A stretch of 41,779 nt of DNA, taken from the IMG/VR virus record IMGVR_UViG_3300022217_000261, positions 1 to 41,779 of that record, one strand, 5' to 3'. Numbering within the stretch: position 1 is the first letter of the stretch; the number at the start of each line of letters is the position of its first letter. Shown piece after piece: positions 7,235 to 32,923 of this stretch. This DNA is from a virus (taxonomy: Duplodnaviria; Caudoviricetes). Both the position numbers and the translations under genes were made by a program. The notes below the pieces were generated by a model, which was not told the origin of the DNA, ran no database searches, and saw only the letters and a program-made list of their open reading frames with translations.

Positions 7235-8098
7235 ATGTCAGAATTATTAAAAAGATCTATAGAATTAACTCAGAAGGTATATGATTCACCGGATAATCCA
7301 TATAAAATAGAAAATCAGTTAGAACAAGATTTATTTCAAATATATTATCATCCAGATGCTCATGTTTTTCCACCTAATAATTCTTATCAAATTATGTTAC
7401 CATATTCTGGTGGGGTAGATAGTTATATTGGTTACTATTTTGCAAAAGTTAGATTTAAAAATGTTATACCATTATTTGTAAATTATGGACAACCTTATGC
7501 TAAAGAAGAAATAGAGTCAGTAAAAAATACTCCTTTCTTTGATGATATAGAATCTATAGATTTAACTCGACAATTACAATTTAATAGACAAGATATATGG
7601 GGAGAGCATTTTCCATCTAGGAATTGGCTATTTTGTGTATTAGCTGCTGAAAGAATAGATAATATGGGTTCTATTTGGTTATGTGCTCATGATGGAGAAA
7701 TTACTACTACATGGGGAGATAAGAGTCTATATTTTATTGAGAAAGGTTCGGATATTTTATCTACTTATTTCAATAAACTTATTAGAATAGAATTTCCATT
7801 TTTAAATAGAACTAAAGGAGAAATGATCAAGTGGTATTTAAATGAAGGATTATCTAAACAAGATATGTTGGATAGAGTTACTTGCCATAATTTTATTAAT
7901 GGACAAGCGTGTGGAGAATGTTTAGGGTGTTGTCCTAGATATGTATCTATGAAAATTAATGGAATAGATGAAGAATATATAGGAAACGTTCATGAAAATG
8001 CTAAAAAATATTTTAGAGATAGTCTACAAGGTCCTTTAAATATATATTCTAGACAACGTCTATTAGAGGCTGAAGAAATATTAGGAAACTTTTTTTAA
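7235..8098 (+). CDS. queC: QueC-family PP-loop ATPase (divergent 7-cyano-7-deazaguanine synthase-like)
   Basis: YSGGVDS, NYGQ, FPSRN, PFLNRTK, TCH...CGECLGC zinc site. Confidence 0.85.
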   Translation: MSELLKRSIELTQKVYDSPDNPYKIENQLEQDLFQIYYHPDAHVFPPNNSYQIMLPYSGGVDSYIGYYFAKVRFKNVIPLFVNYGQPYAKEEIESVKNTPFFDDIESIDLTRQLQFNRQDIWGEHFPSRNWLFCVLAAERIDNMGSIWLCAHDGEITTTWGDKSLYFIEKGSDILSTYFNKLIRIEFPFLNRTKGEMIKWYLNEGLSKQDMLDRVTCHNFINGQACGECLGCCPRYVSMKINGIDEEYIGNVHENAKKYFRDSLQGPLNIYSRQRLLEAEEILGNFF

Positions 8099-8133
8099 TT
8101 TATATTTAAATAGATACAAATAATGGAGTTAAG

Positions 8134-9357
8134 ATGTTTAAAAAAATTAAAGTAGCAATAATTGGTGTTGGTAATTGTGCAAAAAGTCTTATAGAAGGAG
8201 TATCATATTATAAAGATGATACATCAGATGATATTAATGGTATTATGTTAACAGATATAGGTGGATATCGATCAGGAGATATAGAATTTTGTGCAGCCTG
8301 GGATATAGATTATAGAAAAATAGGAATCCCTTTATACAAGGCTATAAATTCTAAACCTAATAATGCTAAAACTTTGAAAGAAGAAGTTGAAGATGTATGT
8401 GGATCAACTATAGTTCATCAAGGTCCTTTATTTGATGGGGTAGGACCTATGATGTTAAATGATATTGATGAGAATAATACTCATAGACCAGCAGATGATT
8501 CAAAGGCTATGACTACTATAGAAATAATAAAAGAATTAAAAGATAAAGAAATTGATATTATTTTAAATTATTTACCCGTAGGATCTCAAATAGCTACAGA
8601 ATATTGGATGAATATAGCATTAGAAGCTAAATGCCATGTTGTAAATTGTATTCCTATTTTTATAGCGTCTAATCCTAAATGGGAACAAAAATTTATAGAT
8701 TCTGAATTAACTATCATAGGAGATGATATGCGTTCTCAATTTGGAGCTAGTATTATATCAGCCGCTTTGCAAGAATTACTTTTTACTAGAGGACATGAAG
8801 TAATTATGCATTATCAAGATAATATAGGGGGGAATTGTGATTTTAAAAATATGCAAGATCCTGAAAGATTAGAATCAAAGAAAATTTCAAAAGAGAATGT
8901 AATTAAAAACCAGAATAATTTACATGAGAAAGAAATTTTACCTAATACAATTCATGCAGGCCCTGCTCAATATTTCTCTTGTTTAGGTGATAATAAAAGA
9001 GCACATTGGCTAATTAAAGCTGAAGGATTTTGTGGATCAAAGGTTGAATTTTTTGCTAATCTTAGTGTTGAAGATAGTCCTAATTCTGCTGGTGTTGTTA
9101 TTGATGCTATTAGATTATGTAAAGTAGCATCAGAATTAGGTATTGTAGGGGCTATTCATGGAGCTTCTGCCGCCACTCAAAAAACTCCCCCTATTGATAT
9201 GTCTATTAGCTTAGCTAAAGAAGAATGTATGTCACTTGCTAAACGTAAATTAACAGATTTTACTAAACATCAATTAAAAGAATTATCTCCATGTGCCAAA
9301 ACTTTAAATGAATCTTTTAAAGAATTGGTAATGGCAGCACATAAAAGAGCGATATAA
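8134..9357 (+). CDS. ino1: myo-inositol-1-phosphate synthase
   Basis: VAIIGVGNCA, NYLPVGS, IIGDDMRSQFGA, GGNCDF, RLESKKISK, DNK, EDSPNSAGVVIDAIR. Confidence 0.93.
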   Translation: MFKKIKVAIIGVGNCAKSLIEGVSYYKDDTSDDINGIMLTDIGGYRSGDIEFCAAWDIDYRKIGIPLYKAINSKPNNAKTLKEEVEDVCGSTIVHQGPLFDGVGPMMLNDIDENNTHRPADDSKAMTTIEIIKELKDKEIDIILNYLPVGSQIATEYWMNIALEAKCHVVNCIPIFIASNPKWEQKFIDSELTIIGDDMRSQFGASIISAALQELLFTRGHEVIMHYQDNIGGNCDFKNMQDPERLESKKISKENVIKNQNNLHEKEILPNTIHAGPAQYFSCLGDNKRAHWLIKAEGFCGSKVEFFANLSVEDSPNSAGVVIDAIRLCKVASELGIVGAIHGASAATQKTPPIDMSISLAKEECMSLAKRKLTDFTKHQLKELSPCAKTLNESFKELVMAAHKRAI

Positions 9358-9360
9358 TAT

Positions 9361-10512
9361 ATGAGATTTATATATTTTCCCGCATGCTCGGTAGGTCCGA
9401 TTGAGATTTCTTTTAGAAAAGATCCTAAATTCCGATTTTATAATAAAAAAGATAGTGAGTTTTTTCATTACCCTTATTTATTAACATCAGCCGGGCATAG
9501 TTATAAGAAAGATAACTATATTACTGATATAAATTTTGATTTTAAAAAGGGAATTTTATTTGGTGATTCAGGCGGTTATCAAATAGCTACTAAAAAATTA
9601 ACCTATTCTGACGATCTTAGAAAACAAATTTTTAATTGGTTAGAAAATAATTCAAATTTAGCAGCTAATTTGGATATACCACCTGTAGTATCTAATAAAA
9701 AAAATAATGTTAACATTTTTAATGAAGCTTTAGCTATTAGTGTAAAGAATTTTAAATATTTTTCAGATAATCAATCTGGTAAGACTAGATTTCTAAATGT
9801 TTTACATGGTAGAGATGTATCTAGTTGGGATATATGGTATAATTCTGTTAAAGATTTTAAATTTGATGGATGGTGTATAGGAGGAATTAGTGTAAATAAA
9901 AGCTTAACTATTCAATCTCTATTTTATTTATTGATGAAAGGAGAATTTGATAATCCTTCAAATAAATTCTTTCACCTTCTAGGTACTTCTAAACCCGATG
10001 TATTTATTTATTTAATTTATTTTTCTTATTTAGTAGAGAAGCTAAGAGGAAGTAAAGCATTTATTACTTCAGATTCAAGTTCACCTAGCAAGGCTACAGC
10101 ATTTGGTACTTTTTATATATCCCATGATTTTGTTAGTTTTAAATCCTTACAATATACAAATAAATTTAAAATGGATGAGCATATACATTCCTCTGCTAAA
10201 GTACCATGTTCTTGTATAATATGTAAAGATTTAAAAATTAAAGATTACTATCAATGGAATACCAATAGTTATACCTTAATGACATTACATAATCTTAATT
10301 TATTTATAGATTATATAGAAAATATTAAAAAAATTATGTCATGTGAATATGATGAAATGATTTATAGTTATTTTCCAGCAAAAATAGTTAAAAATTTAAA
10401 ATTAATAAGAAAATGTTTTGATTCTAAAAACCCGGTGGAATTATTAAGACAACAAGGGAAAAATTTTCAGGATACTAATATTAATTATTCTGAAATGAAT
10501 GAATTCTTCTAA
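9361..10512 (+). CDS. dpdA: TGT-fold guanine transglycosylase, most likely DNA-targeting DpdA/DpdA2-type
   Basis: DSGGYQ, LDIP, FHLLG, DSSS, CSCIIC...H zinc site; beside que genes and DNA polymerase; N-terminus unlike bacterial tRNA Tgt. Confidence 0.8.
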   Translation: MRFIYFPACSVGPIEISFRKDPKFRFYNKKDSEFFHYPYLLTSAGHSYKKDNYITDINFDFKKGILFGDSGGYQIATKKLTYSDDLRKQIFNWLENNSNLAANLDIPPVVSNKKNNVNIFNEALAISVKNFKYFSDNQSGKTRFLNVLHGRDVSSWDIWYNSVKDFKFDGWCIGGISVNKSLTIQSLFYLLMKGEFDNPSNKFFHLLGTSKPDVFIYLIYFSYLVEKLRGSKAFITSDSSSPSKATAFGTFYISHDFVSFKSLQYTNKFKMDEHIHSSAKVPCSCIICKDLKIKDYYQWNTNSYTLMTLHNLNLFIDYIENIKKIMSCEYDEMIYSYFPAKIVKNLKLIRKCFDSKNPVELLRQQGKNFQDTNINYSEMNEFF

Positions 10513-10829: not shown

Positions 10830-13382
10830 TTGTTTGCAAATATATTCTATAATTACAGTTCTAATAAAATTTCACTTTGGGAATACCATGATGGAAATAG
10901 ATTTTTTGTTCAAGAAGATTATACCCCTTATTGTTATATTCCAAATAAAAATGGTAAATTTAAAGATTTATATGGATCACGGTGTAAGTTAAAAAAATTT
11001 AAAAATTACCACGATCAAAAAGAATTTGTTCAAAATTATAATTCTTATGAAGGTGATATTACTCCCATAGATCGTACTCTTATTGATAGATATCATGATA
11101 TAGACCTTTTAAAAACCATACCTACCTTACATATACATATAACTGATATTGAAACAAAATGTGATGAAGGGTTTCCTGATGCACAAAGACCTAATGATGA
11201 AATTCTTTTAATATCAACTTATTCTAATAAAACTAAAAAAGTACATATATTTGGGCAATATAAATTTGATTTTTCTAAATTATCTAAAGATATTCAAGAA
11301 AAAATAAATATTAATGATATAATTTATACCTATTGTCAAAGTGAACGTGAACTTTTAAAAGAGTATTTTAGATTTCATAGGAGTGATTATCCGGATATTA
11401 TTTCTGGTTGGTATAGTCATATCTTTGACTTTCCATATATTTTAGATAGAGCAATATTAATTCTAGGTGATAAATTTGCAAGTAAATATTCCCCAGTTGG
11501 GGTTATAAAAGAATCTTATCATAAAGATAAAAAAGAATATGAAATAGCTGGAATTACTATATGCGATTACCAAGATATATATAAAAAATATAGTATTAAT
11601 GAGAGAGATTCATATTCTTTAAATAACATTGCGCATACTGAATTAAATGAAGAAAAGCTTGAATATGATGGAACTCTTAGAATATTATGGAAAACAGATT
11701 GGAATTTATATACTGCTTATAATATTCAAGACGTATTGCTTGTTAAGAAATTAGATGAAAAACTGGATTTTATAGGATTAATTCAAGTTCAAGCTTATAT
11801 TAGTAAAGTTCCTTTAAATAAAGTTCATTCTAGTATAAAGAAATTTGATAATTATTTAATGTCATTATTAAAATCTTCTAGTATAGTATTACCTACTGCA
11901 AAAAGAAGGCATTCTTCTAATATTCCAGGTGGATTTGTTTTAGAACCAACTAGAAAAGGATACCATCAAAATGCTGTTAGTTTTGACTTTACTTCACTAT
12001 ATCCAATAATAATGATGACACTTAATTTATCACCAGAAACTTTTGTAGGTAAAATAACTTCTGTGGAAGGTAATACTTATAGAGATATAGATTATATATG
12101 TCTTGAGAATGATAAAGAATATATGATATTGAATAAGATTAAAAAAGGTAGTGATATAAAAAAATTAATAGATAAGCATAAATTAATTCTTTCTCCTAAT
12201 GGATTATTATTTAAATCAGGAGAGGGGTTTATTCCTAAGATCGTTAATAATATTTTCAAAAACAGGAAAGATTTTCAAAAAACGATGAGGGATTATGATA
12301 AAAAATATGAAGAAACTAAAGAAGAAAAATATAAAAGGTTAGCTCAAAAATATAATTTATATCAACATGCACAAAAGATTACTATTAATGCTATGTATGG
12401 CATTCTAGCTAATCCTAATTTTAGATTATTTGATGCCGATTTTGCATCTGCTATCACGTTAACAGGTCAAAAACTTATAAAATATACTATATATAATACT
12501 AATGAATTTTTTAAAGAAAAATTCAAAATAGATAAAGACGTGGTATATTTTGCTTCCACAGATTCATGTTATTTAGATTATGATGAGATATTAAAAAAAT
12601 TAAAGGTTAATGATGAAAATAAAATAGTAAATATTATTAATAAAATAAATGAAAAAATAATTGGTCCTTATTTTAAAGAAATATTTAAGGTTTTCTCTTT
12701 AGATATGATGAAATCAGATAAGAATTTATTTGAATTTGAAAGAGAATTTATTATTAAGACCTCTATTCATATTGATAAAAGAAAATATGCAATGTTGATT
12801 TTAGATAAAGAAGGTACTACTTATAAAGAACCAAAATTTGTTGTAAAGGGAATTGAAATTGTTAGAAGTTCTACTCCTGAATATTGCAGAGATAAAATTA
12901 AAGATATTGTTATGATGATTTTAAATATGAAAGAGAAATCTCAAGTAATAGATTCATTGAAAAATATTCATAAAGATTTTATTATACAGCCTCCTCATAT
13001 TATAGCATTTCCTAGAGGCATTAAAGAGTTAACTAAATATATAGATTCTAAAGGAAATACTAATAAAGGGTGTCCTATTCATGTTAGAGCAGCACATAAT
13101 TATAATACTTTAGTTGAAAAATTAAGGTTAGAAGTAAAATATGATTATATAATGCCAGGTGAAAAATTAAAATTTTTATATTTAACTCCTAGCAAAATAT
13201 TACATACTCAAAATGTAATAGCGTTTCCTGAAATATTACCAGAAGAATTTGAATTGCATAAATTCATTGATGTAGAAACTCAATTTAATAAAACTTTTAT
13301 GTCTCCTATTAATACCATAACTAATAGCATTGGATGGGGTAATTTAGATTTATATACTTCAGATATAGATGAATTTTTCTAA
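10830..13382 (+). CDS. 43: family B DNA polymerase (T4 gp43-like), TTG start
   Basis: Exo DIET / FDFPY / YNIQD; motif A DFTSLYP, motif B KITINAMYG, motif C variant ASTDS, KRKY, KGIEIVRSSTP; AGGAGG RBS. Confidence 0.95.
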   Translation: MFANIFYNYSSNKISLWEYHDGNRFFVQEDYTPYCYIPNKNGKFKDLYGSRCKLKKFKNYHDQKEFVQNYNSYEGDITPIDRTLIDRYHDIDLLKTIPTLHIHITDIETKCDEGFPDAQRPNDEILLISTYSNKTKKVHIFGQYKFDFSKLSKDIQEKININDIIYTYCQSERELLKEYFRFHRSDYPDIISGWYSHIFDFPYILDRAILILGDKFASKYSPVGVIKESYHKDKKEYEIAGITICDYQDIYKKYSINERDSYSLNNIAHTELNEEKLEYDGTLRILWKTDWNLYTAYNIQDVLLVKKLDEKLDFIGLIQVQAYISKVPLNKVHSSIKKFDNYLMSLLKSSSIVLPTAKRRHSSNIPGGFVLEPTRKGYHQNAVSFDFTSLYPIIMMTLNLSPETFVGKITSVEGNTYRDIDYICLENDKEYMILNKIKKGSDIKKLIDKHKLILSPNGLLFKSGEGFIPKIVNNIFKNRKDFQKTMRDYDKKYEETKEEKYKRLAQKYNLYQHAQKITINAMYGILANPNFRLFDADFASAITLTGQKLIKYTIYNTNEFFKEKFKIDKDVVYFASTDSCYLDYDEILKKLKVNDENKIVNIINKINEKIIGPYFKEIFKVFSLDMMKSDKNLFEFEREFIIKTSIHIDKRKYAMLILDKEGTTYKEPKFVVKGIEIVRSSTPEYCRDKIKDIVMMILNMKEKSQVIDSLKNIHKDFIIQPPHIIAFPRGIKELTKYIDSKGNTNKGCPIHVRAAHNYNTLVEKLRLEVKYDYIMPGEKLKFLYLTPSKILHTQNVIAFPEILPEEFELHKFIDVETQFNKTFMSPINTITNSIGWGNLDLYTSDIDEFF

Positions 13383-15138: not shown

Positions 15139-16008
15139 TTGAAATGTTTTTATCACAAAGTAGATTTTGATGGAGAATGTTCAGGTGCTATAGTTAAAAG
15201 ATCTTATCCACAATGTGAAATGATCGGAATTAATTATGGGGATGAATTTCCTTGGGATTCTATAGAATTAGATGAAACTATTTTTATGGTAGATTTTGGT
15301 ATGCAACCATTTGACGATATGGTCAAACTAAAAGAAAAATGTGGAAAATTAATATGGATCGACCACCATTCTACTGCTTTAAATGACTTAAAAGAAAGTG
15401 GAGTAGAATTTGATGGAATTCAAAAAGAAGATAAAGCAGGGTGTGAATTAACTTGGGAATATTTGAATCCTGATACTCCTCTTCCAGATTCTGTATATTA
15501 TTTAGGCAGATATGATGTTTGGGATTTGAATGCTAATCCTAATATACTATCTTTTCAATATGGTATGAAACAATATGAAGATACTACACCTGAATCTAAT
15601 ATTTGGAATGAAATTTTACCTTCTAAATCATTTAAAGAATATCTTAATGGTAAAGTAAATCCTAATCATTTAGCTAAAATTATAGTTGATGGTAATCTAA
15701 TTCTTAAATATCAAAAGGCAGAAAATAAGAAGAGATGTGAAGCTATGTCATTTGAAACAGAATTTGAAGGGTTAAAAGCTATTGCTATGAATATGGGAAT
15801 GACTAGTTCTCAAATATTTGATTCAGTTTATGATGAAAATAAATATGATATTATGTTACCTTTCAGTAGAAAATTAGGTCAATGGACAGTTAGTATATAT
15901 ACTACTAAAGATAATATCCATGTAGGTAAAATAGCTAAAAAATATGGTGGAGGTGGACATAAAGGAGCTGCAGGATTTCAATGTTCTAAGCTTCCATTTA
16001 AAGCTTAA
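15139..16008 (+). CDS. DHH/DHHA1 phosphoesterase
   Basis: YHKVDFDG, MVDF, WIDHH, GGGGHKGAAGF; TTG start with AAAGGAG. Confidence 0.88.
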   Translation: MKCFYHKVDFDGECSGAIVKRSYPQCEMIGINYGDEFPWDSIELDETIFMVDFGMQPFDDMVKLKEKCGKLIWIDHHSTALNDLKESGVEFDGIQKEDKAGCELTWEYLNPDTPLPDSVYYLGRYDVWDLNANPNILSFQYGMKQYEDTTPESNIWNEILPSKSFKEYLNGKVNPNHLAKIIVDGNLILKYQKAENKKRCEAMSFETEFEGLKAIAMNMGMTSSQIFDSVYDENKYDIMLPFSRKLGQWTVSIYTTKDNIHVGKIAKKYGGGGHKGAAGFQCSKLPFKA

Positions 16009-16689: not shown

Positions 16690-17895
16690 TTGAAAATGAA
16701 AATAATTAATTCAGAAAAATTAGTAATTAAATCTTGGTGTAATAATCCAGAAGAATCTGCTATAAATCAAGCTAAAAATTTAGCTAATCTACCATTTGCA
16801 TTTAAACAAATTGTTTTAGCTCCAGATACTCATCAAGGATATGGAATGCCAATTGGTGGCATATTAGCTACAGAAGGAGTAGTTATTCCAAATGCAGTGG
16901 GAGTAGATATTGGATGCGGAATGATTGCAGTAAAAACTTATATTAAATCTAAAGATCTAGATAATAATACTTTAAAAATAATTATGGGAGAAATTAGAAA
17001 GAAAGTCCCCGTTAGATTTAATAAACACGATAAAATGCAAGATTTAAAATATATGCCATATGAGGCTTCTATTAATTCAGAATTATTTTCAGGATTACCA
17101 ATAATTAAAAGAGAATATGATAATGCTAGATTATCTCTTGGAACTCTTGGTGGCGGTAATCACTTCATCGAAATTCAAAAAGGTGATGATGGTTACATCT
17201 GGATAATGGTTCATACTGGATCTAGGAATTTAGGTAAACAAGTAGCAGACCATTATAATAATTTAGCTAAAGAGTTAAATAAAAAATGGTATTCTCAAGT
17301 ACCTAAAGAATGGGATTTAGCTTTTTTATCTTTAGATTCTCAAGAGGGTCAAAATTATTTAAAAGAAATGAATTATGCTTTAGAATTTGCTACATGCAAT
17401 AGACATTTAATCATAGAAAGAATTAAAGAAGCTTTCTATAATGTTTGGAATACTAAAACATCATTTCCTTTAAATTTTATGGAACCTATTGAACTATCAC
17501 ATAATTATGCTAGAATGGAAAGTCACTTTGGTAAAAATGTAATGATTCATAGAAAAGGAGCTACATCTGCTAAGTTTAATGAATTAGGAATTATTCCTGG
17601 ATCTCAAGGATCAAATTCTTATATAGTTATAGGCAAAGGTAATAAAAATTCTTTTATGTCTTGTTCTCATGGAGCTGGTAGAAAAATAGGAAGAAAACAA
17701 GCTCAAAAAAATTTAAATTTAGATGAGGAAATTGAAAAATTAGATAAGTTAGGTGTTGTACATAATATAACAACTGAAAAAGATTTAGATGAAGCTAGTG
17801 GAGCATACAAAGATATTTCAGTTGTTATGAAAGAACAAGAAGATTTAGTTGATATTGCAGTTGAATTGACTCCAATGGGAGTTATAAAAGGATAA
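16690..17895 (+). CDS. rtcB: RtcB-family RNA 3'-phosphate/5'-OH ligase
   Basis: PDTHQGYGMPIG, VGVDIGCGM, GTLGGGNHFIE, HTGSR, HNYA, HRKGA, PGS, SCSHGAGR, DEASGAYK. Confidence 0.95.
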   Translation: MKMKIINSEKLVIKSWCNNPEESAINQAKNLANLPFAFKQIVLAPDTHQGYGMPIGGILATEGVVIPNAVGVDIGCGMIAVKTYIKSKDLDNNTLKIIMGEIRKKVPVRFNKHDKMQDLKYMPYEASINSELFSGLPIIKREYDNARLSLGTLGGGNHFIEIQKGDDGYIWIMVHTGSRNLGKQVADHYNNLAKELNKKWYSQVPKEWDLAFLSLDSQEGQNYLKEMNYALEFATCNRHLIIERIKEAFYNVWNTKTSFPLNFMEPIELSHNYARMESHFGKNVMIHRKGATSAKFNELGIIPGSQGSNSYIVIGKGNKNSFMSCSHGAGRKIGRKQAQKNLNLDEEIEKLDKLGVVHNITTEKDLDEASGAYKDISVVMKEQEDLVDIAVELTPMGVIKG

Positions 17896-17907
17896 AGGAG
17901 ATTGGAA

Positions 17908-18951
17908 ATGTTAAAAATGATATTGAATACTATATTTCTTTTAATATTATGTATTTCTATTGCACAAGCTAATACTCCTCATTATAAAGTTCTTGTTGAT
18001 ATAACTCCTCCTTTTGTTATGAAAGATGAAAGGAATAATTGGGAGGGTATAGAAATAGAGCTTCTAAAAGAAATATCTGACAGATCCAATTTTTCTTATG
18101 AAATTGAACAGGTACCCTTTAAAGATATTTTTAAAGAGATACAATCTGGAAATGGTGATATAGGATTATCTGCTATAACCATAACTTCTGATAGAGAAAA
18201 ATTATTTGATTACACACATCCATATTATACTTCTAATACAGGAGTATTGACTAAAACTGATAATATAGCAATAACCATAACAAAAAAGATTTTCTCTATC
18301 ACCTTTTTAAAAGCATTGATGCTATTACAATTAGCTACTTTTATAATAGCATTTCTAATATGGATTTTTGAGATTAGGAAAAAGCATGATTATTTCACTT
18401 GTAATAAAGAAGGGTTAGGGAATTCGTATTGGTTTTCTTTAGTAACTAGTATAACTCAAGGTTACGGCGATATGACTCCACAAACTTTGGCCGGTAGGAT
18501 AATAACAAGTGCTTGGATGTATATATCATTAATATTAGTTAGTGGATTTGTAGCTGTTTTAGCTGCCTCTACCACTATTGAAAATGAATCCGAGAATAAT
18601 TTTAGTATCAATTGGGTAAAGAAAAGAGACATAGGTGTCATTGAAAATACATCTAGTTCTAAATTGTTGGATAACATGTCCATTATTAATACAAAATATA
18701 AAACTTTGGAATTAGCAGAAAAAGATTTGACAACAAATAAAATTGATGCTATAATATATGACTATCCTATATTAAATCATTATATACAGGATAAGAGAAG
18801 TTTATCACTTAATAAAATAGATTTTAATGTAGAAAGCTACGGATTTTTATTTAAGCAAGGCAGTCCATTAAGAGAGGAGGTGAATTTTAGATTAATAGAC
18901 TTTATTAGTTGTTCAAAATGGCACAAAATTCAAAAATTATATTTAAATTAA
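17908..18951 (+). CDS. GluR0-like ligand-gated ion channel (split SBP family 3 domain around a 2-TM K+ pore)
   Basis: signal peptide, PPFV, ITITSDRE, FDYTHPYY, TM1, pore TSITQGYGD, TM2, DAIIYDYP, ESYGF. Confidence 0.85.
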   Translation: MLKMILNTIFLLILCISIAQANTPHYKVLVDITPPFVMKDERNNWEGIEIELLKEISDRSNFSYEIEQVPFKDIFKEIQSGNGDIGLSAITITSDREKLFDYTHPYYTSNTGVLTKTDNIAITITKKIFSITFLKALMLLQLATFIIAFLIWIFEIRKKHDYFTCNKEGLGNSYWFSLVTSITQGYGDMTPQTLAGRIITSAWMYISLILVSGFVAVLAASTTIENESENNFSINWVKKRDIGVIENTSSSKLLDNMSIINTKYKTLELAEKDLTTNKIDAIIYDYPILNHYIQDKRSLSLNKIDFNVESYGFLFKQGSPLREEVNFRLIDFISCSKWHKIQKLYLN

Positions 18952-18962
18952 GGAGAGTAAAA

Positions 18963-20561
18963 ATGAAATGTAATTGGAAAGTAACATCAATTATTTTGGC
19001 TGTACTAACAATATTTTTAGTAACAGAATATTCGGAAGCTAGAAGGGGAGGGTTCTCATCTTCAAGAAGTTTCTCATCTTCAAGAAGTGTTTCAAAGAGT
19101 AAAAGTTGGGGGTTTTCAAATTCAAAATCTCGTAATACTTCTTCTAAGAAAACAGTAAAACATTCTAAAAAACCTAAGAATGTAGTAAAATCTTCTACGA
19201 AGTCGACATCGAAATTTAATAAGCCAGCTTCTACTTTTTCAAGTAAGAAAGCCGCAAGTAAAAAGAAATCAGCTGCTTCTTATAAAAAATATAAATCAAA
19301 ATTTAAGAAACCTTCTGTTACAGCTAGTAAATCTAGTTTAAGAAAATCGTATAAAAATAATAATATAGTTAGAAATTCTTCAAATTATAATTCGTCTACA
19401 TATGATAGAAGAAGATCTACTTATTATGGTTCTTATCAACAACCTAATTATGTGTATGTAGGTTCTTCTAGTTATGGTATGTGGGATTCTCCGTTCTTGT
19501 GGTATATGCTGTTGAGTAATAATAATTCTAGTTTTGCATATAATCATTATAATGATCCTGGATATCAGCAATGGAGAAGGGAAGCTAATGAACTAGCTAG
19601 AAGCAATGAGAATCTTGAAAGAAAATTGAGAGAATTAGATCGAGAAGTAAGTCAAATATCTGGTGAAAGAAATCCTAATTATTTACCTGCTGGTGTTGAT
19701 GCTGATATAGCACTATCGAGAGATGTAGTAAATGCTAATAGGCCAATTTTGAGAGTATGTACAGGGCCAATTGATGGTATGTATGTTTATTCTGGGAAAA
19801 TTTTAAAGAAATCTTCTGATAGTGTAGATATTGAAATTGTTAAAACAAAAGGCACTATGGATAATTTTAAAAAGGTTGAGGCTGGCGTATGTGATGCCGC
19901 TTTTGTACAAAGAGATGGCTATTGGATTTATGCCCAATTTAATCAAAATACAAATCTTAATTATACCCGGGTGCCATCAGTTTATACAGAATATGTTCAT
20001 TTAATGTGTAAGAATGATAGTGATATTACTAATATTTCCGATATGAGTTCTAGGAATACTATATTAATAGGACATGATGATTCTGGATCAGCTCTTACTT
20101 GGACTAGTTTTGTATCTGAAAACAGTAAGTATAAAAAAGTTAATGCACAAAATGGTAAAAGTGCTAGTGGTGAAGCCTTAGAACTAATACAAAATAATAG
20201 TAAGGCTGATTGTATGCTACAAGTATCTGGGATAAAATCTAAAGGTATTAGAAATGCACTTGAAATGAACAACTATTCTAAAACAATAAGTCTTGCTAGT
20301 GTGAGTGATAACAAGCTTAATAAATTGAAAGACCCGGGTAATAATCCTATTTATAAAGTAGGAGTTATTAAATCTACTACTTATCCTAGTATGCAAGAGG
20401 GAATGATATATGGCCATAATGATATAGATACTTTAACCATAGAAACTGATTTTATAATTTCAAATGTATGGAAGAACAAAAACAAGCAAACTTTTGAACT
20501 TCTTAATGATGAGATTAATCTATCTATTCCTGAAATTAGGGCATACACAAATAGCCAATAA
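18963..20561 (+). CDS. exported Ser/Lys-rich protein fused to a TAXI-family solute-binding domain
   Basis: signal peptide ending SEA|RRGG, low-complexity S/K region, YGMWD, then CTG..GMY, TKGTMDN, CDAAFVQRD, YTEYVHL, SGSALTW; AAGGAG places start at 18963. Confidence 0.75.
   Translation: MKCNWKVTSIILAVLTIFLVTEYSEARRGGFSSSRSFSSSRSVSKSKSWGFSNSKSRNTSSKKTVKHSKKPKNVVKSSTKSTSKFNKPASTFSSKKAASKKKSAASYKKYKSKFKKPSVTASKSSLRKSYKNNNIVRNSSNYNSSTYDRRRSTYYGSYQQPNYVYVGSSSYGMWDSPFLWYMLLSNNNSSFAYNHYNDPGYQQWRREANELARSNENLERKLRELDREVSQISGERNPNYLPAGVDADIALSRDVVNANRPILRVCTGPIDGMYVYSGKILKKSSDSVDIEIVKTKGTMDNFKKVEAGVCDAAFVQRDGYWIYAQFNQNTNLNYTRVPSVYTEYVHLMCKNDSDITNISDMSSRNTILIGHDDSGSALTWTSFVSENSKYKKVNAQNGKSASGEALELIQNNSKADCMLQVSGIKSKGIRNALEMNNYSKTISLASVSDNKLNKLKDPGNNPIYKVGVIKSTTYPSMQEGMIYGHNDIDTLTIETDFIISNVWKNKNKQTFELLNDEINLSIPEIRAYTNSQ
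19053..19088 (+). repeat. 2x 18-bp tandem repeat (FSSSRS x2)
   Basis: TTCTCATCTTCAAGAAGT repeated exactly. Confidence 0.9.
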
Positions 20562-20584
20562 AATGGATTGAAAAGGAGCTTTAC

Positions 20585-21250
20585 ATGGGTATATTTAGTT
20601 TTTTAAAATCATATAAAAAGGTAAAGAAAAATAAGAAAGAGGGCGTACAACCAGATTATCCCTTTAATCTCAGAGTAGATGGTATTATTAAGTTGGATGA
20701 AACACCTTTTCTATTTAACTCTGATTTAAATTTTGATTTTCCTGGAGGATCTACTACAATACTAGCTATAGGAAAATTTAAATTTTATAATGACTCTTTT
20801 TATAGAGCTTATTTAAAATCTAGTGAAGGGAAAGAACCGTTTCTTCAATTTAATATTGATGGATCTGATGTTATATTATTTGATACCATTACTGAAATAT
20901 ATCCTCAATCAGAAAGTGAATGGAATGAGTGGTTAGAACCTGGTGAGGGATATATTGGGCAGCAAACTATTGAGGTTGAAGGTAAATCTACTAGAATTTA
21001 TAATAGAGTGTTTGGAGGTGATAATTATTGGACAGAACCGATCCAATATAATGAACACATAGAGGTTTCTAAAAAACAATCAAATGTTGAAAATTATGAA
21101 GCCCCTGCTCAAATGATGTTATATGAGTATAAACTTGAAAGTGGTGAATCTGAATATATTATGGTTAATTTTGAAGAAGACGAAAATGATATGGATATTC
21201 GTTTGTATATCGGGATTAATATTAAATTAGGTTCATTAGAAATTATTTAA
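20585..21250 (+). CDS. DUF2491/YjfK-like protein
   Basis: YRAYL...FLQ, EIYPQSESEWNEWL..G.IG, YNRVF, MMLY; adjacent to a PspA homologue as in yjfJ-yjfK. Confidence 0.65.
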   Translation: MGIFSFLKSYKKVKKNKKEGVQPDYPFNLRVDGIIKLDETPFLFNSDLNFDFPGGSTTILAIGKFKFYNDSFYRAYLKSSEGKEPFLQFNIDGSDVILFDTITEIYPQSESEWNEWLEPGEGYIGQQTIEVEGKSTRIYNRVFGGDNYWTEPIQYNEHIEVSKKQSNVENYEAPAQMMLYEYKLESGESEYIMVNFEEDENDMDIRLYIGINIKLGSLEII

Positions 21251-21278
21251 AAAAACAAAATAAAAAGGAGATATTAAA

Positions 21279-22052
21279 ATGCTAGGAAATTTTTTCAAAA
21301 ATTATGGTAAACAAAAAATAATGGATGCGGGTGAAGGTGCTATGAATCTTATTGTAAAAATGGATGCTGAAGGTGCTACAGAAGCTTCTATTCTACAATT
21401 AAATGAATATGTGAATGACCTTATAACCCAAGCAGCAGAAGCCAGACAGGAATATAATAAAGAAAAAGCTGAATATGATCACATTCAAGAATTGTTTGAT
21501 AAAAGGATGCAAGCGGCTGAAAACTTGCAGAATATGATTGCTTCAGAAGAAGATGACACTAGAAAGCAAGAACTTGAAGGAAAACTTGCTGATTTGCTAG
21601 ATAAACTGGAATCTATGTCTCCTGATATTGAAAAGGAAAAAGAAGATGCCGAACAAGCTAAAGTTATTTTAGATGATTTGGAAGAAATGGCTAAAGAGGC
21701 GTCTATTGAATTAAAAACAGCTAGACAAAGGGCATCCGAAGCTAAAAGAAATATGCAAAAAGCTTTACTTGATGAAAAGAGAGCTAAGAAAAATCAAGAG
21801 AGAGCTGAAGTAGCTGCTGGTCTAAAAAGGAAGATAGGAGGAATGGGGTCCGCATTAGATACTATGGAAAAAATGGCAGATGACTCTAAAAAGAAAACAA
21901 TGGCTGCTAAGATGAAAACGGATTTATTGAAACCAATTCCTAATATTGACGACGATCCCGATATTAAACTAGCTATGGGAGAAAGTAGCAATAGCAATGA
22001 AGGAAGCAGCATTTCAGATAGATTGAAAAATCTAAGAAGTTCTACCAAATAA
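21279..22052 (+). CDS. PspA/IM30-family coiled-coil protein (YjfJ-like)
   Basis: amphipathic N-terminus MLGNFFKNY, DAEGA, long coiled coil, C-terminal SISDRLKNLR. Confidence 0.65.
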   Translation: MLGNFFKNYGKQKIMDAGEGAMNLIVKMDAEGATEASILQLNEYVNDLITQAAEARQEYNKEKAEYDHIQELFDKRMQAAENLQNMIASEEDDTRKQELEGKLADLLDKLESMSPDIEKEKEDAEQAKVILDDLEEMAKEASIELKTARQRASEAKRNMQKALLDEKRAKKNQERAEVAAGLKRKIGGMGSALDTMEKMADDSKKKTMAAKMKTDLLKPIPNIDDDPDIKLAMGESSNSNEGSSISDRLKNLRSSTK

Positions 22053-22122
22053 TTTGTGTAAATCTTGCCTTACAAATTAACATGAAAATAAAAAATTAAG
22101 ATATGAAAGGAGGAGATATAAA

Positions 22123-22365
22123 GTGAAAAAAATTATGGGAGCACTAGCAGTTATATTGGGTATATTTTTAATGATTTATAATTATTTTTTTAAAGTATCA
22201 AATATAACTAAAAGTGCTGTTATGCAATTAGAAGACAGTGATGTTATGTATGGTATTGGTTCAAGATTAGCAACTACAAATACAAGTTTAATTTTTACAG
22301 TAATTAGTTTGTTGTTAATTATTTATGGAATTTATATTTTTAATAAATCTAAAAATGGAGAATAA
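22123..22365 (+). CDS. small membrane protein with 2 TM helices
   Basis: GTG start with AGGAGG; two hydrophobic helices. Confidence 0.75.
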   Translation: MKKIMGALAVILGIFLMIYNYFFKVSNITKSAVMQLEDSDVMYGIGSRLATTNTSLIFTVISLLLIIYGIYIFNKSKNGE

Positions 22366-22368
22366 AGG

Positions 22369-23158
22369 ATGAAAAATGTATTTTTACTTATAATTATAGC
22401 AGTATTAGCAAGTGCATGTGGCCCCGCTAGAATAGATGAATTTATTGAAGTTAAACCTAGTGAAACTGCTTTTGTAATTCCTTTAGAAGGCGATACAAAA
22501 GCTCAAGGTAAGTTTAATTCTGAAAAATACCTTATTGATAAAAAAGTTGCTGCTAAAAGAATTTATTTACCTTTAAGAAAAGTTGATACTGGAAGATTTT
22601 GGTGGCAATATGCATGGGTACCAACTGTTAAAGTAATTACTGTAGATAGAAAGCCTATTACTTTTGAATGGGAAGGGAAAAAAGGTATAGAATGGGACTC
22701 CTATGTTAAATGAAGAAGGATTACCAGTAGTTGTTCAAGGGGCCAGACAACAAAAAGGAATAATTGTGGATCAGGCTAAAGAAGAATTAATAGAATTCTT
22801 CTCCAAAACTGGATTAACAATTACAACTTTTGGTTTAACTGGTGGGTTAATGTATGATGATAAAGAAATTCAAAAAGCTATTAATGATAATTTTAGATCA
22901 GAATTAGAAATTAAAAATCAACGTAATGAGCGTTTAGCGCAAGAAGAAACTAATAATAAAGATATTGCTCAAGCAACAGCTAAAAAATTAGCGGCACAAC
23001 AATTTGCTTTAGCTGCTGAAGCACAAACTAAAATGATTAATTTAGAAATTGCTAAGATAAAGGCCGAAGCGGAAAAAATAAAGGCTGAAAAATGGAATGG
23101 TCAATTACCATCTAATATTATGCCTGAAGGTTCAAATTTTATTTTAGGAATGAAATAA
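22369..23158 (+). pseudogene. SPFH/band-7-like lipoprotein split into two frames (22369-22713 and 22703-23158)
   Basis: Lipobox-like ASAC and ETAFVIPL in the first part; GLTITTFG, IQKAI, coiled coil and EKWNGQLP (SPFH-like C-terminus) in the second; frame change near 22690. Confidence 0.6.
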
Positions 23159-25182: not shown

Positions 25183-25434
25183 ATGAGAAAAAGATTAAAG
25201 AAAAAGATTACTAAAAAAATAGGAATAGAATTTAATAAATGGTATATAGATGAATTTCTACCTTTGTTAAATAAAAAGAATAAAGAATTAAAGGAATTAA
25301 AAAATATGAAAATTTGTTTAGAATATGAATGCTCTTATTATAATGAAGAAGAAGAAAATAATTGTAGACTGGAAATAGACATAAGCAATTGTAATTTATT
25401 TCCAGTTTACATTGATGATAGTGATGATGTATGA
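25183..25434 (+). CDS. hypothetical protein, 83 aa
   Basis: ORF track; Cys cluster CLEYEC...C...C. Confidence 0.55.
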   Translation: MRKRLKKKITKKIGIEFNKWYIDEFLPLLNKKNKELKELKNMKICLEYECSYYNEEEENNCRLEIDISNCNLFPVYIDDSDDV

Positions 25435-26452
25435 AGATGGTTATTATAATGTAACTACAGAATGGGCTTCTGATTATATAGTAATTGAAAATAATGTTAT
25501 TATAAGAACTTCAAGACAATATAGATGGTTAAGAAATTGGGATATTAATATTTTAAAAAAATTTAAATTAAGAAAGCTAAAGATGGATAAAAAAATAATT
25601 AATATTACACATCGTGACATGGATGGTCTAGTTTGTTCTATTCTATTAAACGATTTTTGTAATGCTAAAGATATAGATTTTGAAAAAATTGAATGCACAT
25701 ATAGAAATATAGATTCAACTCTAAAAAAAGTTATTGATGAAAATTGTTATATTTTCATCACTGATATTTCTATTGTAGATGAATCACAATTCCCAGAATT
25801 AAAAAATATGAAAAATGTTTTCTTCATAGATCATCATCCTAGAGAAACTCCTTCAATTATTAAAAATCAATACCATGCAATTAATAAAGGAGCAGGATGT
25901 AAAATGACTATGGATTATATTGAGAAAAAATACAACTATAAATTTTCTAAAGATATCAAAAGATTAGTATTAATTGCTTCGGATTATGATACATGGACTC
26001 ATAAGTATCATATTTCAAAACAAATGAATAGATTGTTTTATTTTCATGGAGTTAATAAATTTTTTTATAGATTTGCCGCAGGATTTAATGGTAAATGGAC
26101 GGATGAAGAAAAGAAATTTTTTATTGCTAAAAATGCTGAGGTTCAGCATATTAAAGATACTTTGATGATTGAAGAAATATCAAATAATGTTAGATTAATT
26201 TGTGTTACTAAAGAAATAGATGAAATGGCAGAATATGTTCAACAAAAAGATAATGTAGATTATGTTATTGTTTATAATTCTTTTTTAAAATCATTAAGTT
26301 TTAGATCTACAGAAAAAGCAAAAATTCATATGGGAGAATTTTTAAATCAATATGGTGGTGGAGGTCATAAATGTGCAGCTGCTGTTAAAATTAAAGATGA
26401 AAATGAAATATTTCCAATATTAGAAATTTTAGTTACTACATTAGGAGAATAA
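25412..26452 (+). CDS. DHH/DHHA1 phosphoesterase (domain begins at ATG 25583)
   Basis: THRDMDG, ITD, FIDHH, SFRS, GGGGHKCAA. Confidence 0.85.
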   Translation: MMIVMMYEDGYYNVTTEWASDYIVIENNVIIRTSRQYRWLRNWDINILKKFKLRKLKMDKKIINITHRDMDGLVCSILLNDFCNAKDIDFEKIECTYRNIDSTLKKVIDENCYIFITDISIVDESQFPELKNMKNVFFIDHHPRETPSIIKNQYHAINKGAGCKMTMDYIEKKYNYKFSKDIKRLVLIASDYDTWTHKYHISKQMNRLFYFHGVNKFFYRFAAGFNGKWTDEEKKFFIAKNAEVQHIKDTLMIEEISNNVRLICVTKEIDEMAEYVQQKDNVDYVIVYNSFLKSLSFRSTEKAKIHMGEFLNQYGGGGHKCAAAVKIKDENEIFPILEILVTTLGE

Positions 26453-26456: not shown

Positions 26457-26798
26457 ATGTATGTGAATTCACAAAGACCATTACCTGATATGTTATTTAT
26501 ACAAAAATTAAAGAAAATTAGTTCTAATGAAGAAATTGAATATATAATAGATATTTTAGATGATGAAAATAAACATATTATAAATGATATAGATAAGCAG
26601 AAAATAGAACGTTTTTTTAAACGATTGCGGTATAATTCTAAAGGGTCTGTAAGTTCTTGGAAAGATACTATTGTAGAATTTTGTAATACTTATGATTGTG
26701 ATATATTATTTATATTACAAAAAAATAAAAGATTATTTGAAAAAATTAAAATTGAAATGAAAAATCTTAATAATGAAAATATGGAAGAATTTTTTTAA
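26457..26798 (+). CDS. 33: late transcription co-activator, T4 gp33-like
   Basis: 113 aa; DTIVEFCNTYDCD...LFEKIKIEMKNLN pattern; terminal MEEFF; directly precedes a gp59-like gene as in T4. Confidence 0.6.
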   Translation: MYVNSQRPLPDMLFIQKLKKISSNEEIEYIIDILDDENKHIINDIDKQKIERFFKRLRYNSKGSVSSWKDTIVEFCNTYDCDILFILQKNKRLFEKIKIEMKNLNNENMEEFF

Positions 26799-29492: not shown

Positions 29493-29581
29493 ATTTATAA
29501 ATTAATTGATAAATTTATTCCGAAATTGATTATATAAAATATAATAAACTAAAAATATAATCAATGGAGGAGAAGTTTAGC

Positions 29582-30322
29582 ATGGCAGAAGCAATAATTG
29601 AAATTAAAGATAAATCAAAATTTGTAGCCCCACTTAGTAGTTTAAAAAATGGAATAACATCTATAGTATTTTCAGTTGAAAATAATACATTAAAAATAAA
29701 TGCACTATCAGAAGATAGATCACAAAGAGCTAATATTTGGTATAAATCTGATATTGTAGAAGTTTCCAAAATAGATGATGTTGAAAAATTAGGTATTTAT
29801 AATTTAAGTGAATTTTTAGGTGTATTATCTTTATGTGAATCAAAACTAAAAATAAAAGTTAAAGATAATAAATTAATGATAGGGTTAGGTAAGACATCTA
29901 AAGTTAATTATGTTCTTTCAGATATTGATTTAATTGAGGAAGGCCCTGAAAAAAGTAAACCAATTGATTTTGAAATAGAATTTGAAGTAGATGAAAATTT
30001 TATTTGTAAAGTGAATAGTATTTCAAAATCGCTTAATGTTAATATTTTGAAGTTTATTGTTAAAAAAGGTAAATTATTTTATAAAATTACTGATAAAAAT
30101 GAAGAATCCCATGATTTTACAGAAAAACTTTTAGATGATTGTGATTGTTCGGATATTTCTATATGTATATGTTTAAAGGATGAAAATAGAGATAATATTG
30201 GTATTTTGACAGATAAAATCCCTTATAAATTTTCATTACATAAAAAAATAGTGCAAATTGAATCTATTACTGAAGATTATGAAAAAATTAGATATTTTTT
30301 AGGTCCTTTAACAGAGGATTAA
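29582..30322 (+). CDS. 45: sliding clamp (T4 gp45-like)
   Basis: GIYNLSEFLGVLSL signature; C-terminal IRYFL; GGAGG RBS places start at 29582. Confidence 0.8.
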   Translation: MAEAIIEIKDKSKFVAPLSSLKNGITSIVFSVENNTLKINALSEDRSQRANIWYKSDIVEVSKIDDVEKLGIYNLSEFLGVLSLCESKLKIKVKDNKLMIGLGKTSKVNYVLSDIDLIEEGPEKSKPIDFEIEFEVDENFICKVNSISKSLNVNILKFIVKKGKLFYKITDKNEESHDFTEKLLDDCDCSDISICICLKDENRDNIGILTDKIPYKFSLHKKIVQIESITEDYEKIRYFLGPLTED

Positions 30323-30480: not shown

Positions 30481-30510
30481 AATATAATATAACTAAAAAT
30501 TTTCTTAATA

Positions 30511-30554: not shown

Positions 30555-30561
30555 TTAAAAA

Positions 30562-31119
30562 ATGATATTGTCACTTGATATTAGTTTAAGGTGTACTGGT
30601 ATTACTTTATTAGATCTTAATGGAAACTTAATAGATTTTACTATAATAGCAAATGAGGAAATAAAAAATGAACAACTACTGGACAAAAATCAAAAGGATA
30701 TATCGGAATTTGTTAATAAATATTCAAATGTTATATCTAAAATTGCAATTGAAGGTCTTTCATTTCAATCTGCGTCGAAAGTAAGAGATCTTATCGATGC
30801 TAATTTTTGGGGGATACGTTTATTACTTTGGAAAAAATTTAAAAATATTCCAATAGATATAGTTCCAGTTACACAATGGAGAAAATTAGTTATTCCAATT
30901 GAAAGATCTAGGGAACTTAAGAAGTTAATTAAATGGGGAATTGTTAAAAAAGTTAATTGGCAAAAAATAGAGTGTGTATGTAAATTACCAAAGAAAGTTA
31001 AATTAAGATTTGAAGAGTATTTAGGTAAAAAGAAAAATGGGTTATTCGATTTGACGGACTCTTATTTTTTAGGGCAATATATAATTTCACTTAAAATAAA
31101 AAAGGATGATTATGACTAA
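30562..31119 (+). CDS. RuvC-like Holliday junction resolvase
   Basis: ILSLDISLRCTG, IAIEG, PVTQWRK, DLTDSYFL. Confidence 0.8.
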   Translation: MILSLDISLRCTGITLLDLNGNLIDFTIIANEEIKNEQLLDKNQKDISEFVNKYSNVISKIAIEGLSFQSASKVRDLIDANFWGIRLLLWKKFKNIPIDIVPVTQWRKLVIPIERSRELKKLIKWGIVKKVNWQKIECVCKLPKKVKLRFEEYLGKKKNGLFDLTDSYFLGQYIISLKIKKDDYD

Positions 31120-31447
31120 AGAAAAATATCAACTATTGGCAGATTTTAAATACAAACCAGGTGATTATTTTGGATCTGAATTAACTAAATTAAATTCTGC
31201 AGATTCTGAAGAAATTTCACTCTATAAAACTCAATGTATTAATGAAGGAATTGGTTGTATAATAGCTGTAAAATTTCCCAATGTAAGTAAAGTGATATAT
31301 GCTGTATTAGAAGATAATGATTTAGATACCGATAAAGAAAATCCTAGATATATATTTAGTTATTTTGATATTGAATCAGATAAAATAGTCATCATAGATA
31401 CTTTATATGATAGAGGTTATGAGATAGTTAAAGGATTGGAGAGATAA
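31106..31447 (+). CDS. hypothetical protein, about 111-113 aa
   Basis: overlaps resolvase stop; AAGGA RBS. Confidence 0.65.
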   Translation: MIMTKEKYQLLADFKYKPGDYFGSELTKLNSADSEEISLYKTQCINEGIGCIIAVKFPNVSKVIYAVLEDNDLDTDKENPRYIFSYFDIESDKIVIIDTLYDRGYEIVKGLER

Positions 31448-31448
31448 T

Positions 31449-32387
31449 TTGACTGAACCGAACATTCCGTGGGTCGAAAAATTTAGACCCAAGATTTTAG
31501 ATAATGTTATTTTACATGTCTCTGATAAAAAAATCATTAAATCTATAATTGACATCGGCGCTGAAAATTTACCAAATTTGTTATTCTCGGGATCACCTGG
31601 GACAGGTAAAACTACTTTGGCTAAAGTTATAGCAAATGAATTAGATATGCCATGTTTACATATAAATGCTTCAGATGAATCAGGTATTGATACAATAAGA
31701 ACTAAAGTAAAGGGATTTGGTTCTTCTATGTCAGTTGATGGTAAAATCAAACTTATAATAATTGATGAGGCGGATGGATTAAGTTTTCAAGCCCAGAAAG
31801 CTTTTAAAGGGGTTATCGAAAGCTTTCATAAAAGTACAAGATTTGTATTTACTTGTAATTATTCTGAGCGAATAATGGATGCTCTTAAATCGAGATTGAA
31901 AGAAGTACAATTTAAAACAATTTCTATTAAGCCTATAAAGAAACGAATAATAGAAATTCTTAAAAATGAAAATATTAATGTTTCTAAATCTGAAGGGATT
32001 AAGCTAATTAATATGATTGAAAGACTTAGTCCAGATATTCGTAAAATTATTAATCATTTACAATATTTTTCTAGTACAGGTGATTTAGAGATTGAGGATG
32101 ATATAGATGCTGATGTGTTTGAAGAAATTATTACTATGATTAAAGAAAAGAAACTTAGTAATATTAGAGAAATATTAAGAAATAATAAATGTGATTATAA
32201 TTTATTAATAGCAAAAGTTTTTGATAGTGTTTTAGATGATAAAAATGATTTGCTAGGGAATCTAAATGAAACGCAAAGAGCTAAAATTATTTTACTTTGT
32301 AGTGAATCTCTATTTAGATCGTCATTTGCAGTAGATAAAGAAATTAGTTTTGCGTCTTTTACCATTGAATGTATGGCTATTTTATAA
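31449..32387 (+). CDS. 44: clamp loader AAA+ subunit (T4 gp44/RFC-like), TTG start
   Basis: PWVEKFRP, GSPGTGKTT, NASDESGID, IDEAD, FTCNY, LKSR, PDIR. Confidence 0.93.
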   Translation: MTEPNIPWVEKFRPKILDNVILHVSDKKIIKSIIDIGAENLPNLLFSGSPGTGKTTLAKVIANELDMPCLHINASDESGIDTIRTKVKGFGSSMSVDGKIKLIIIDEADGLSFQAQKAFKGVIESFHKSTRFVFTCNYSERIMDALKSRLKEVQFKTISIKPIKKRIIEILKNENINVSKSEGIKLINMIERLSPDIRKIINHLQYFSSTGDLEIEDDIDADVFEEIITMIKEKKLSNIREILRNNKCDYNLLIAKVFDSVLDDKNDLLGNLNETQRAKIILLCSESLFRSSFAVDKEISFASFTIECMAIL

Positions 32388-32449
32388 AGGAGAAAATGAA
32401 GGAAAGTACTATAGAATGGAAATATAGCAAGGATATATTAAAATAATAT

Positions 32450-32923
32450 ATGGATGAATTTTTTAGTTCTAAATATAAAAAAAAGAAAATTATAGAAGAT
32501 GAATTTGAAATTAAAGGAAAGAAAGTAGATTTATTTTCTTATCTTCATGATATATGTTATGCTAAAACCGGAACATTATCATTAAAAGATCCAGGATTAA
32601 AAGCTTTTAATTCATATATGATTTTAAAGTTTTTGTCATTAGAAGAAGCGTATTTGCCTTTTGTTAATATAATGAATAAATATCAAGGCAATATTACTAA
32701 AGAGCAAATGTATAGAGTTTTATTAAATTTAATTCCTAAAGGAAGAAAATTTTTAAAATATCCTAAAAAAATAGAAAAAAATGAAAAAGATATACAATTA
32801 TTAATAAAATATTTTAAATGCTCTAGTCATGAAGCACAAGAATACTTAAAATATGATTTTATTAGAGATATTGATATAAAAATTATAAAAGAAAAGTTCG
32901 GAGGCAAAAAAAGTGAAATATAA
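32450..32923 (+). CDS. 62: clamp loader small subunit (T4 gp62-like)
   Basis: LFSYLHDI, FNSYMILKFLS, MNKY, IPKGRKF.KY, YFKCS..EA.EYL, GG. Confidence 0.85.
   Translation: MDEFFSSKYKKKKIIEDEFEIKGKKVDLFSYLHDICYAKTGTLSLKDPGLKAFNSYMILKFLSLEEAYLPFVNIMNKYQGNITKEQMYRVLLNLIPKGRKFLKYPKKIEKNEKDIQLLIKYFKCSSHEAQEYLKYDFIRDIDIKIIKEKFGGKKSEI

Follow-up and report, generated by a model that had tools for sequence, protein, structure and literature searches.

The window analysed here, 41,779 bases of the IMG/VR record IMGVR_UViG_3300022217_000261 with a GC content of 26.5%, is a fragment of a T4-like phage whose genome is represented by a single contig, and it carries a DpdA-like guanine transglycosylase whose C-terminal end resembles that of the phage's own DNA polymerase. 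Gene labels were taken from Pfam and PHROGs scans over 55 open reading frames (ORFs) of the window, which identified QueD (3912-4349), QueE (4350-5075), FolE (5081-5701), QueC, myo-inositol-1-phosphate synthase (Ino1), a protein of the tRNA-guanine transglycosylase (TGT) family and a family B DNA polymerase, together with UvsX, a helicase, a primase, a gp45-type processivity factor, gp44, gp62, RegA and gp32; the five peptides and the pathway, HAD-like, 216-residue, Ino1, DpdA-like, polymerase, gp33-like, clamp and clamp-loader ORFs described below lie on the + strand. By their Pfam and PHROG matches, QueD, QueE and FolE (3912..5701) form the route from GTP to 7-carboxy-7-deazaguanine (CDG). 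The TGT-family protein (9361..10512; Pfam TGT, E 6.5e-8) is a DpdA-like enzyme of 383 residues, of a long form with a zinc site, and is followed by the gp43-like polymerase (10830..13382; Pfam DNA_pol_B, phrog_262), which serves here as the reference clamp client. The last 12 residues of the DpdA-like protein (residues 372-383, 10474..10512) end in SEMNEFF, the polymerase in SDIDEFF.

The window also encodes a gp45-type clamp and its loader. The gp45-like sliding clamp (29582..30322, the longest ORF starting at 29564; phrog_223 processivity factor, E 1.3e-16) has a profile that matches RB69 gp45 (1b77) at E 0.0027 and T4 gp45 at 0.014, and a search for clamp homologues recovered just three other proteins. 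The large subunit of the clamp loader (gp44-like, 31449..32387; phrog_168, E 2.2e-73) precedes the small subunit (gp62-like, 32450..32923; PF16790, phrog_225), whose N-terminus reads MDEFF. A probable gp33-like late coactivator (26457..26798) ends in NMEEFF; its label in the initial annotation stands only as a lead, the top three ESM Atlas matches all being PF16805 (Trans_coact) with scores of 0.78-0.79, below the bar of 0.9, and no Pfam or PHROG family matching the ORF.

The initial annotation had singled out five FF peptides as a shared clamp-binding motif, and all five translate as it described: IDEFF at the end of the polymerase (13365-13382, including the stop codon, as for the other C-terminal ends), MEEFF at the end of the gp33-like protein (26781-26798), MDEFF at the start of the gp62-like protein (32450-32464), MNEFF at the end of DpdA (10495-10512) and LGNFF at the end of QueC (8081-8098). 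QueD, QueE, FolE, Ino1, the HAD-like and the methyltransferase-like ORFs have different ends, as it had also said. An FF end is found in 4 of the 56 window ORFs, which total 13,078 residues; taking the frequency of FF in the window itself gives a binomial p of 1.05e-5, and an [ILMV]xxFF end in 4 of 56 has p 1.2e-7. A simulation corrected for the post-hoc choice of motif (identical hydrophobic pair, aliphatic residue at -5, at least 4 random positions sharing it) gave 5e-5, and a looser correction allowing any dipeptide common to at least 4 ends gave 0.057. The set exceeds chance, yet its members are not each thereby real. The proposed consensus [ILM]-x-[EN]-F-F is too narrow for the family, in which the core is approximately hydrophobic-x-x-[F/L]-F and tuned to the phage. 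As to the suggestion that gp55 might end similarly, no gp55 was detected on the 41,779-base contig with Pfam and PHROGs. A 77-residue ORF without a family match (35041-35274) ends in INYY, an aromatic pair resembling the FF tails.

Conservation of the tail was assessed in 90 sequences (89 related loci, numbered with the prefix L, and the window), in which 87 complete ORFs in 86 loci match the DpdA profile; no DpdA ORF was obtained from four loci in which the gene is cut by the contig end. With the tail defined as [FLIMW]F in the final six positions, 63 of the 87 DpdA ORFs carry it, against 122 of 1671 other ORFs, and 56 of those 122 are polymerases; the polymerase tail is present in 56 of the 61 polymerase ORFs of these loci. 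It is absent from clamps (0/56), gp44 (0/58), FolE (0/43), QueE (0/34) and QueD (0/27). An independent protein search bears out the conservation that the initial annotation had proposed to check, with 17 of 48 homologues ending in FF and 32 having [FLIMW]F in the last six residues, and F383 reaches at least 90% conservation in an alignment of 54 sequences (34% mean identity), on a level with the catalytic residues. For gp62, a loose motif (hydrophobic-F-D/E or FF in the first 35 residues), written after the sequences had been inspected, is found in 48 of 52 ORFs and in few controls (2/58 gp44 and 1/56 clamp ORFs).

The DpdA tail also follows that of the polymerase of the same phage. The 56 loci with both genes were reduced to 16 lineages at <55% identity and scored by the mean best ungapped match over 8 residues; the own-polymerase score was 19.2, compared with 12.4 +/- 1.3 for shuffled pairs, and none of 100,000 shuffles was as high (p 1e-5). 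The resemblance is visible in individual pairs of DpdA and polymerase ends, such as KKINNLFKF and KKINSLFKF (L067), KMDALFD and KMDGLFW (L055) or NNDLFGW and NTDLFDW (Vibrio phage 2.275.O), and likewise in cultured DpdA2 phages, with SLDDLFG and SLEDLFGW in Moby, SLEELFG and SLESLFG in BUDD, and TLDELFE and SLDDLFE in ACP17. Adding five cultured DpdA2 phages gave 21 lineages, in 14 of which both proteins have the core, and the first residue of the pair is identical in all 14 (6 F/F, 7 L/L, 1 I/I); each of the F and L states requires several changes on the tree.

An AlphaFold2 model of the DpdA-like protein (38-sequence alignment) has a mean predicted local distance difference test (pLDDT) score of 90.4, with only residues 372-383, after the confident barrel, below 50; the protein is thus predicted to be a TGT barrel with a free, unanchored stretch of 12 residues at its end. 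The top Foldseek matches are all tRNA-guanine transglycosylases (E ~3e-10, identity 12-16%). D69, D105 and D238, which we take to be equivalent to the TGT catalytic residues, are invariant in the 54-sequence alignment, and the zinc-site pattern CxCxxC...H is retained. The family profile matches DpdA2 of ACP17 (2.3e-16) and nt-1 (5.5e-9) as well as pf16, Moby, BUCT-ZZ01 and BUDD (2e-16 to 3e-8 over all six); a direct tblastn search of nt-1 with the window protein gave no match at E 0.01. In the tree, the family forms a well-supported branch separate from DpdA2.

Similarity to described DpdA2 enzymes (nt-1/VH7D, ACP17, BUDD; PMC6884629, PMC10516641) extends to the DSGG motif, the length class and the FolE/QueD/QueE neighbours, and the Moby, BUDD, ACP17 and BUCT-ZZ01 members bear the tail. 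In contrast, the window enzyme keeps a cysteine zinc site that is not seen in the DpdA2 alignment rows, and the nt-1 DpdA2 lacks a tail. With DpdA3 of phiST, CP220 and immuto_2-6A (Cui 2023), it shares the phage TGT fold and the CDG pathway, whereas those three assayed enzymes have about 260 residues. Assignment to the phiST/CP220 type was rejected, as the profile detects neither enzyme (CGPG_00065 and CP220 YP_009169190; -1.4 and 0.3 bits). No DpdA was found in the regions of CP21 and F355 examined or at the end of immuto_2-6A. The PA5oct homologue QCG76197 (L104:2402-4024), which matches the window DpdA at 5e-15 in tblastn, is tabulated as DpdA3 in table DS1 of Cui 2023 (PMC10516641). It belongs to a 540-residue class that groups by sequence with the long family of the window and not with the phiST and CP220 enzymes of 260 residues; two families may thus be united under the name DpdA3. 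On these sequence relationships, the window protein is best called a long DpdA, distantly related to DpdA2 and outside the assayed groups. By analogy with its DpdA2 relatives and from its gene context, we infer that its substrate is DNA, into which it would insert a 7-deazaguanine.

Among the 86 DpdA loci, 57 contain the polymerase and 69 the clamp. Next to DpdA, the related loci also carry DpdL (45 of 86) and a family-1 glycosyltransferase of 365 residues with weak similarity to GT1 (64 of 86); neither was detected among window ORFs of at least 70 residues, and the window has the set of Ino1, HAD-like protein and QueC in their place.

We consider it likely that the DpdA tail docks in the gp45-type clamp of the phage and that the FF end of QueC is a coincidence. 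DpdA probably rides the clamp because its end matches that of the polymerase, in many related phages. In the mechanism that we propose, FolE, QueD and QueE would convert GTP into CDG as a free base, on which the QueC paralogue would most simply act. The DpdA tail would dock in the clamp and so keep the enzyme at or behind the fork, on DNA that has just been replicated, where it would exchange guanine for a 7-deazaguanine. We infer both this binding and a gain in efficiency, tethering raising the level or the speed of modification before packaging.

Short clamp-binding peptides of this kind have precedents. A link between T4 alpha-glucosyltransferase and gp45 is reportedly due to Sommer 2004. 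In T4 and RB69, the C-terminal motifs of gp43, gp33 and gp55 bind gp45 and are interchangeable (PMC2988020), and gp45 clients include the ligase through a loop, LDFLF (PMC2988020, PMC6212786). Like these ligands, the DpdA tail is a short peptide, hydrophobic and acidic, that occupies a free C-terminus and recurs at the end of the phage's own polymerase, and the same genome encodes a gp45-like clamp and a gp44/62 loader. It differs in that DpdA is a base-exchange enzyme and not a replication or transcription protein, in that its binding is predicted and the enzyme known from sequence, and in its x-x-F-F core, which is that of the PCNA-interacting peptide (PIP) box and not LDFL. A further parallel is the T4 alpha-glucosyltransferase, a post-replicative DNA modifier that co-purifies with gp45, with binding confirmed, and is proposed to act during replication (PMC13216743). 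Its chemistry and fold are other than those of DpdA, and the excerpted text of that report mentions no polymerase-like tail. DNA modifiers that ride a phage clamp thus have a precedent. No report of a DpdA-clamp link was found in the literature searched, the combination of DpdA2 and clamp giving none, and the word 'clamp' is absent from the main text of the Hutinet (PMC6884629) and Cui (10.1101/2023.04.13.536721) papers.

Several observations weigh against docking of DpdA in the clamp, or narrow what it could explain. Many of the 87 DpdA ORFs are near-copies, and the own polymerase tail is ahead of that of the nearest relative in only 11 of the 16 lineages, which is weak alone and implies that shared ancestry explains part of the match. 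By a core-finding rule devised after the tails had been seen, 7 of the 21 lineages lack the core; L012 and L065 are near variants, and L005 (Paride), L077, L089, pf16 and nt-1 look truly tail-less although their polymerases are tailed. For T4 alpha-glucosyltransferase, the share of modification is not determined mainly by binding to the clamp (PMC13216743). DpdA3 of CP220, phiST and immuto_2-6A replaces 100% of guanines (10.1101/2023.04.13.536721), and these enzymes have, by eye, no polymerase-like tail, so the tail is not required for complete replacement; clamp tethering was accordingly rejected as the cause of complete guanine replacement by DpdA3, which it leaves unexplained. In nt-1, the DpdA2 (L097:2492-3886) is tail-less and the polymerase (L102:6963-9515) is tailed (TLESFFG), and the DNA is modified at only ~0.1% of guanines (~0.11% dPreQ0; PMC6884629). 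A tail-less enzyme with low modification fits an efficiency role, as one case.

Other explanations of the tail were weighed against docking in the clamp. An AT-rich genome, rich in phenylalanine codons, could produce FF ends by composition, and both the low GC content and the value of 0.057 in the unconstrained post-hoc test would allow for this. The p-values of 1e-5 to 1e-7 obtained with the window's own frequencies, the restriction of the conserved tail to particular families and the same DpdA/polymerase match in cultured phages of unrelated hosts make it extremely unlikely that all FF ends arose in this way; chance is contradicted for DpdA and the polymerase and remains the best account for QueC alone. 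A different common partner of polymerase, gp33, gp62 and DpdA, such as another replisome protein, the host clamp or a protease adaptor, would gain some credit from the divergence of the window clamp, which is just 14-21% identical to most clamps of related loci. We nevertheless regard it as improbable to a high degree, given that the polymerase C-terminus, the gp33 C-terminus and the clamp loader are the known set of gp45 ligands (PMC2988020), that a gp45-like gene and its loader are present in the window and that DpdA tails track the phage's own polymerase. The enzyme might alternatively be a tRNA-modifying TGT with a tail unrelated to DNA replication, in line with its PDB fold and profile matches to tRNA TGTs, its CxCxxC...H pattern and the treatment of a Menderavirus homologue as a tRNA enzyme in the Ps15 paper (PMC9025141). 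This is hardly credible when its identity to tRNA TGTs is 12-16%, the profile ties it to the DpdA2 of nt-1, a phage with 7-deazaguanines in its DNA, Cui et al. count the PA5oct homologue as DpdA3, and the gene has polymerase and clamp genes around it, with DpdL adjacent in 45 of the 86 loci.

The initial annotation had extended clamp binding to QueC (7235..8098; Pfam QueC, E 1e-13), a divergent paralogue of 287 residues, and here its proposal divides: conservation, the match to the own polymerase and the predicted free tail support the DpdA half, whereas the QueC half is not supported. In a set of 151 QueC homologues, drawn from the best 150 of 1066 matches after removal of overlap and supplemented by P0052, FF ends are absent; 8 members fit the loose tail pattern, approximately the background. 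The closest two, 76% and 61% identical, end in TVLGKF and ILYKEAV; the tail is found in none of six other QueC-family ORFs in DpdA loci, and the cassette QueC paralogues of Moby, L055, L064, L117 and L121 lack it beside a tailed DpdA. In the structural model, the leucine of LGNFF is the last residue of a helix (273-283; pLDDT of the last block 88), with no linker, and G-N stands where the other four peptides have acidic residues. QueC was rejected as a clamp client on conservation and modelled structure, and its terminal FF is probably a chance coincidence, being unconserved in homologues and directly following a confidently modelled helix; the FF end therefore gives no ground for assigning to QueC an action on CDG within DNA, a view that loses the basis given for it.

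A recent gain of FF would reconcile this lack of conservation with DpdA and QueC both riding the clamp, DpdA inserting CDG and QueC then activating its carboxyl group in DNA. Several features agree with such a gain: the last five residues, LGNFF, conform to hydrophobic-x-x-F-F, the 76% identical homologue closes with LGKF, the paralogue is extended by helices at its N- and C-termini, and putative DNA-decorating enzymes of related phages have like ends (VSDLFV in the L117 glycosyltransferase, SLEDFFND in that of BUCT-ZZ01, LMEFFE in the L114 5-hydroxymethyldeoxyuridine (5-hmdU) kinase-domain protein). Set against 0 of 151 FF-ended homologues, background frequency of the loose pattern, the tail-less cassette QueCs, the helix without a linker and the missing acidic residues, we think this very unlikely.

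If the DpdA tail does bind the clamp, replication and the insertion of 7-deazaguanine, a step described as following replication, would be physically linked in a broad range of T4-like phages, cultured ones (Moby, BUDD, ACP17) included. Tailed DpdA enzymes may then need the cognate clamp and loader to function well in Escherichia coli reconstitutions. The tail of a phage polymerase could also be used to look for other DNA-acting enzymes of the same genome, provided that conservation is checked, as the QueC case illustrates. Polymerase-like ends are also seen in other putative DNA-decorating enzymes of T4-like phages (L117:10896-12287, L099:7650-8993, L114:1881-2957, L114:2954-3970 and L094:12946-13872), which comprise GT1-like glycosyltransferases, a 5-hmdU kinase-domain protein and a Cr30 TAGT-like protein and end in VSDLFV, SLEDFFND, LMEFFE, LSNFFNGA and LSKLF. 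Tethering to the clamp may be a general property of DNA modifiers.

The QueC paralogue is part of a cassette (6151-10512) of HAD-like protein, QueC paralogue, Ino1 and DpdA that is also found in Moby (L093), L117 and L121. In the window, the HAD-like phosphatase, the Ino1 partner (6151..6576; phmmer to Moby CPT_Moby_040, E 8.4e-9), is followed by a 216-residue ORF (6569..7219) without a Pfam or PHROG match, for which the earlier label of methyltransferase was not confirmed, then by QueC and Ino1 (8134..9357; PF01658, E 3e-23). The SGGxDS ATP loop and four zinc cysteines of QueC are invariant; the aligned region of the substrate motif reads WGDKS (family consensus DKS), and YPDC, which we take to be the substrate motif of canonical QueC, is absent. 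A metagenome scan for QueC relatives returned the window itself (L092) only; nowhere along the broad QueC alignment is conservation sufficient to search for loci with it, and a five-sequence alignment led to four loci. Ino1 homologues occur in Cr30, Menderavirus phages and RP13, the HAD-like homologue adjoins Ino1 in 7 of 8 Ino1 loci, and P0057 aligns as a fusion of the HAD-like phosphatase and the QueC paralogue. In 5 of the 8 Ino1 loci, Ino1 and HAD occur without detected deazaguanine genes, and one lies beside a 5-hmdU kinase-domain gene. The cassette and the absence of the usual substrate motif from its QueC point to a possible 7-deazaguanine that bears inositol; no report of an inositol-bearing phage base was found in the literature searched. 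A clamp-borne assembly line behind the fork, in which tethered DpdA inserts CDG and a newly FF-tailed QueC couples the CDG carboxyl to inositol from Ino1 and HAD to give an undescribed inositol-bearing guanine analogue, is a long shot.

Elsewhere in the window, a block of membrane genes (17902-23158, by Pfam and PHROGs) lies between recombination and helicase genes and comprises a fusion of solute-binding protein and ion channel, an NMT1-like binding protein, a DUF2491 protein and a 257-residue ORF without a match; an SPFH/lipoprotein-like gene is split over two ORFs (22369-22713 and 22703-23158) with a stop and a gap. The same scans identified an NAD-dependent DNA ligase and a class II (B12) ribonucleotide reductase (38682-40487 and 1264-3165), unlike T4, which has an ATP ligase and class I/III ribonucleotide reductases. 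Two DHH phosphoesterases and an RtcB ligase were also found (15139-16008, 25412-26452 and 16690-17895), one DHH phosphoesterase preceding the gp33-like gene in the place that RNase H has in T4.

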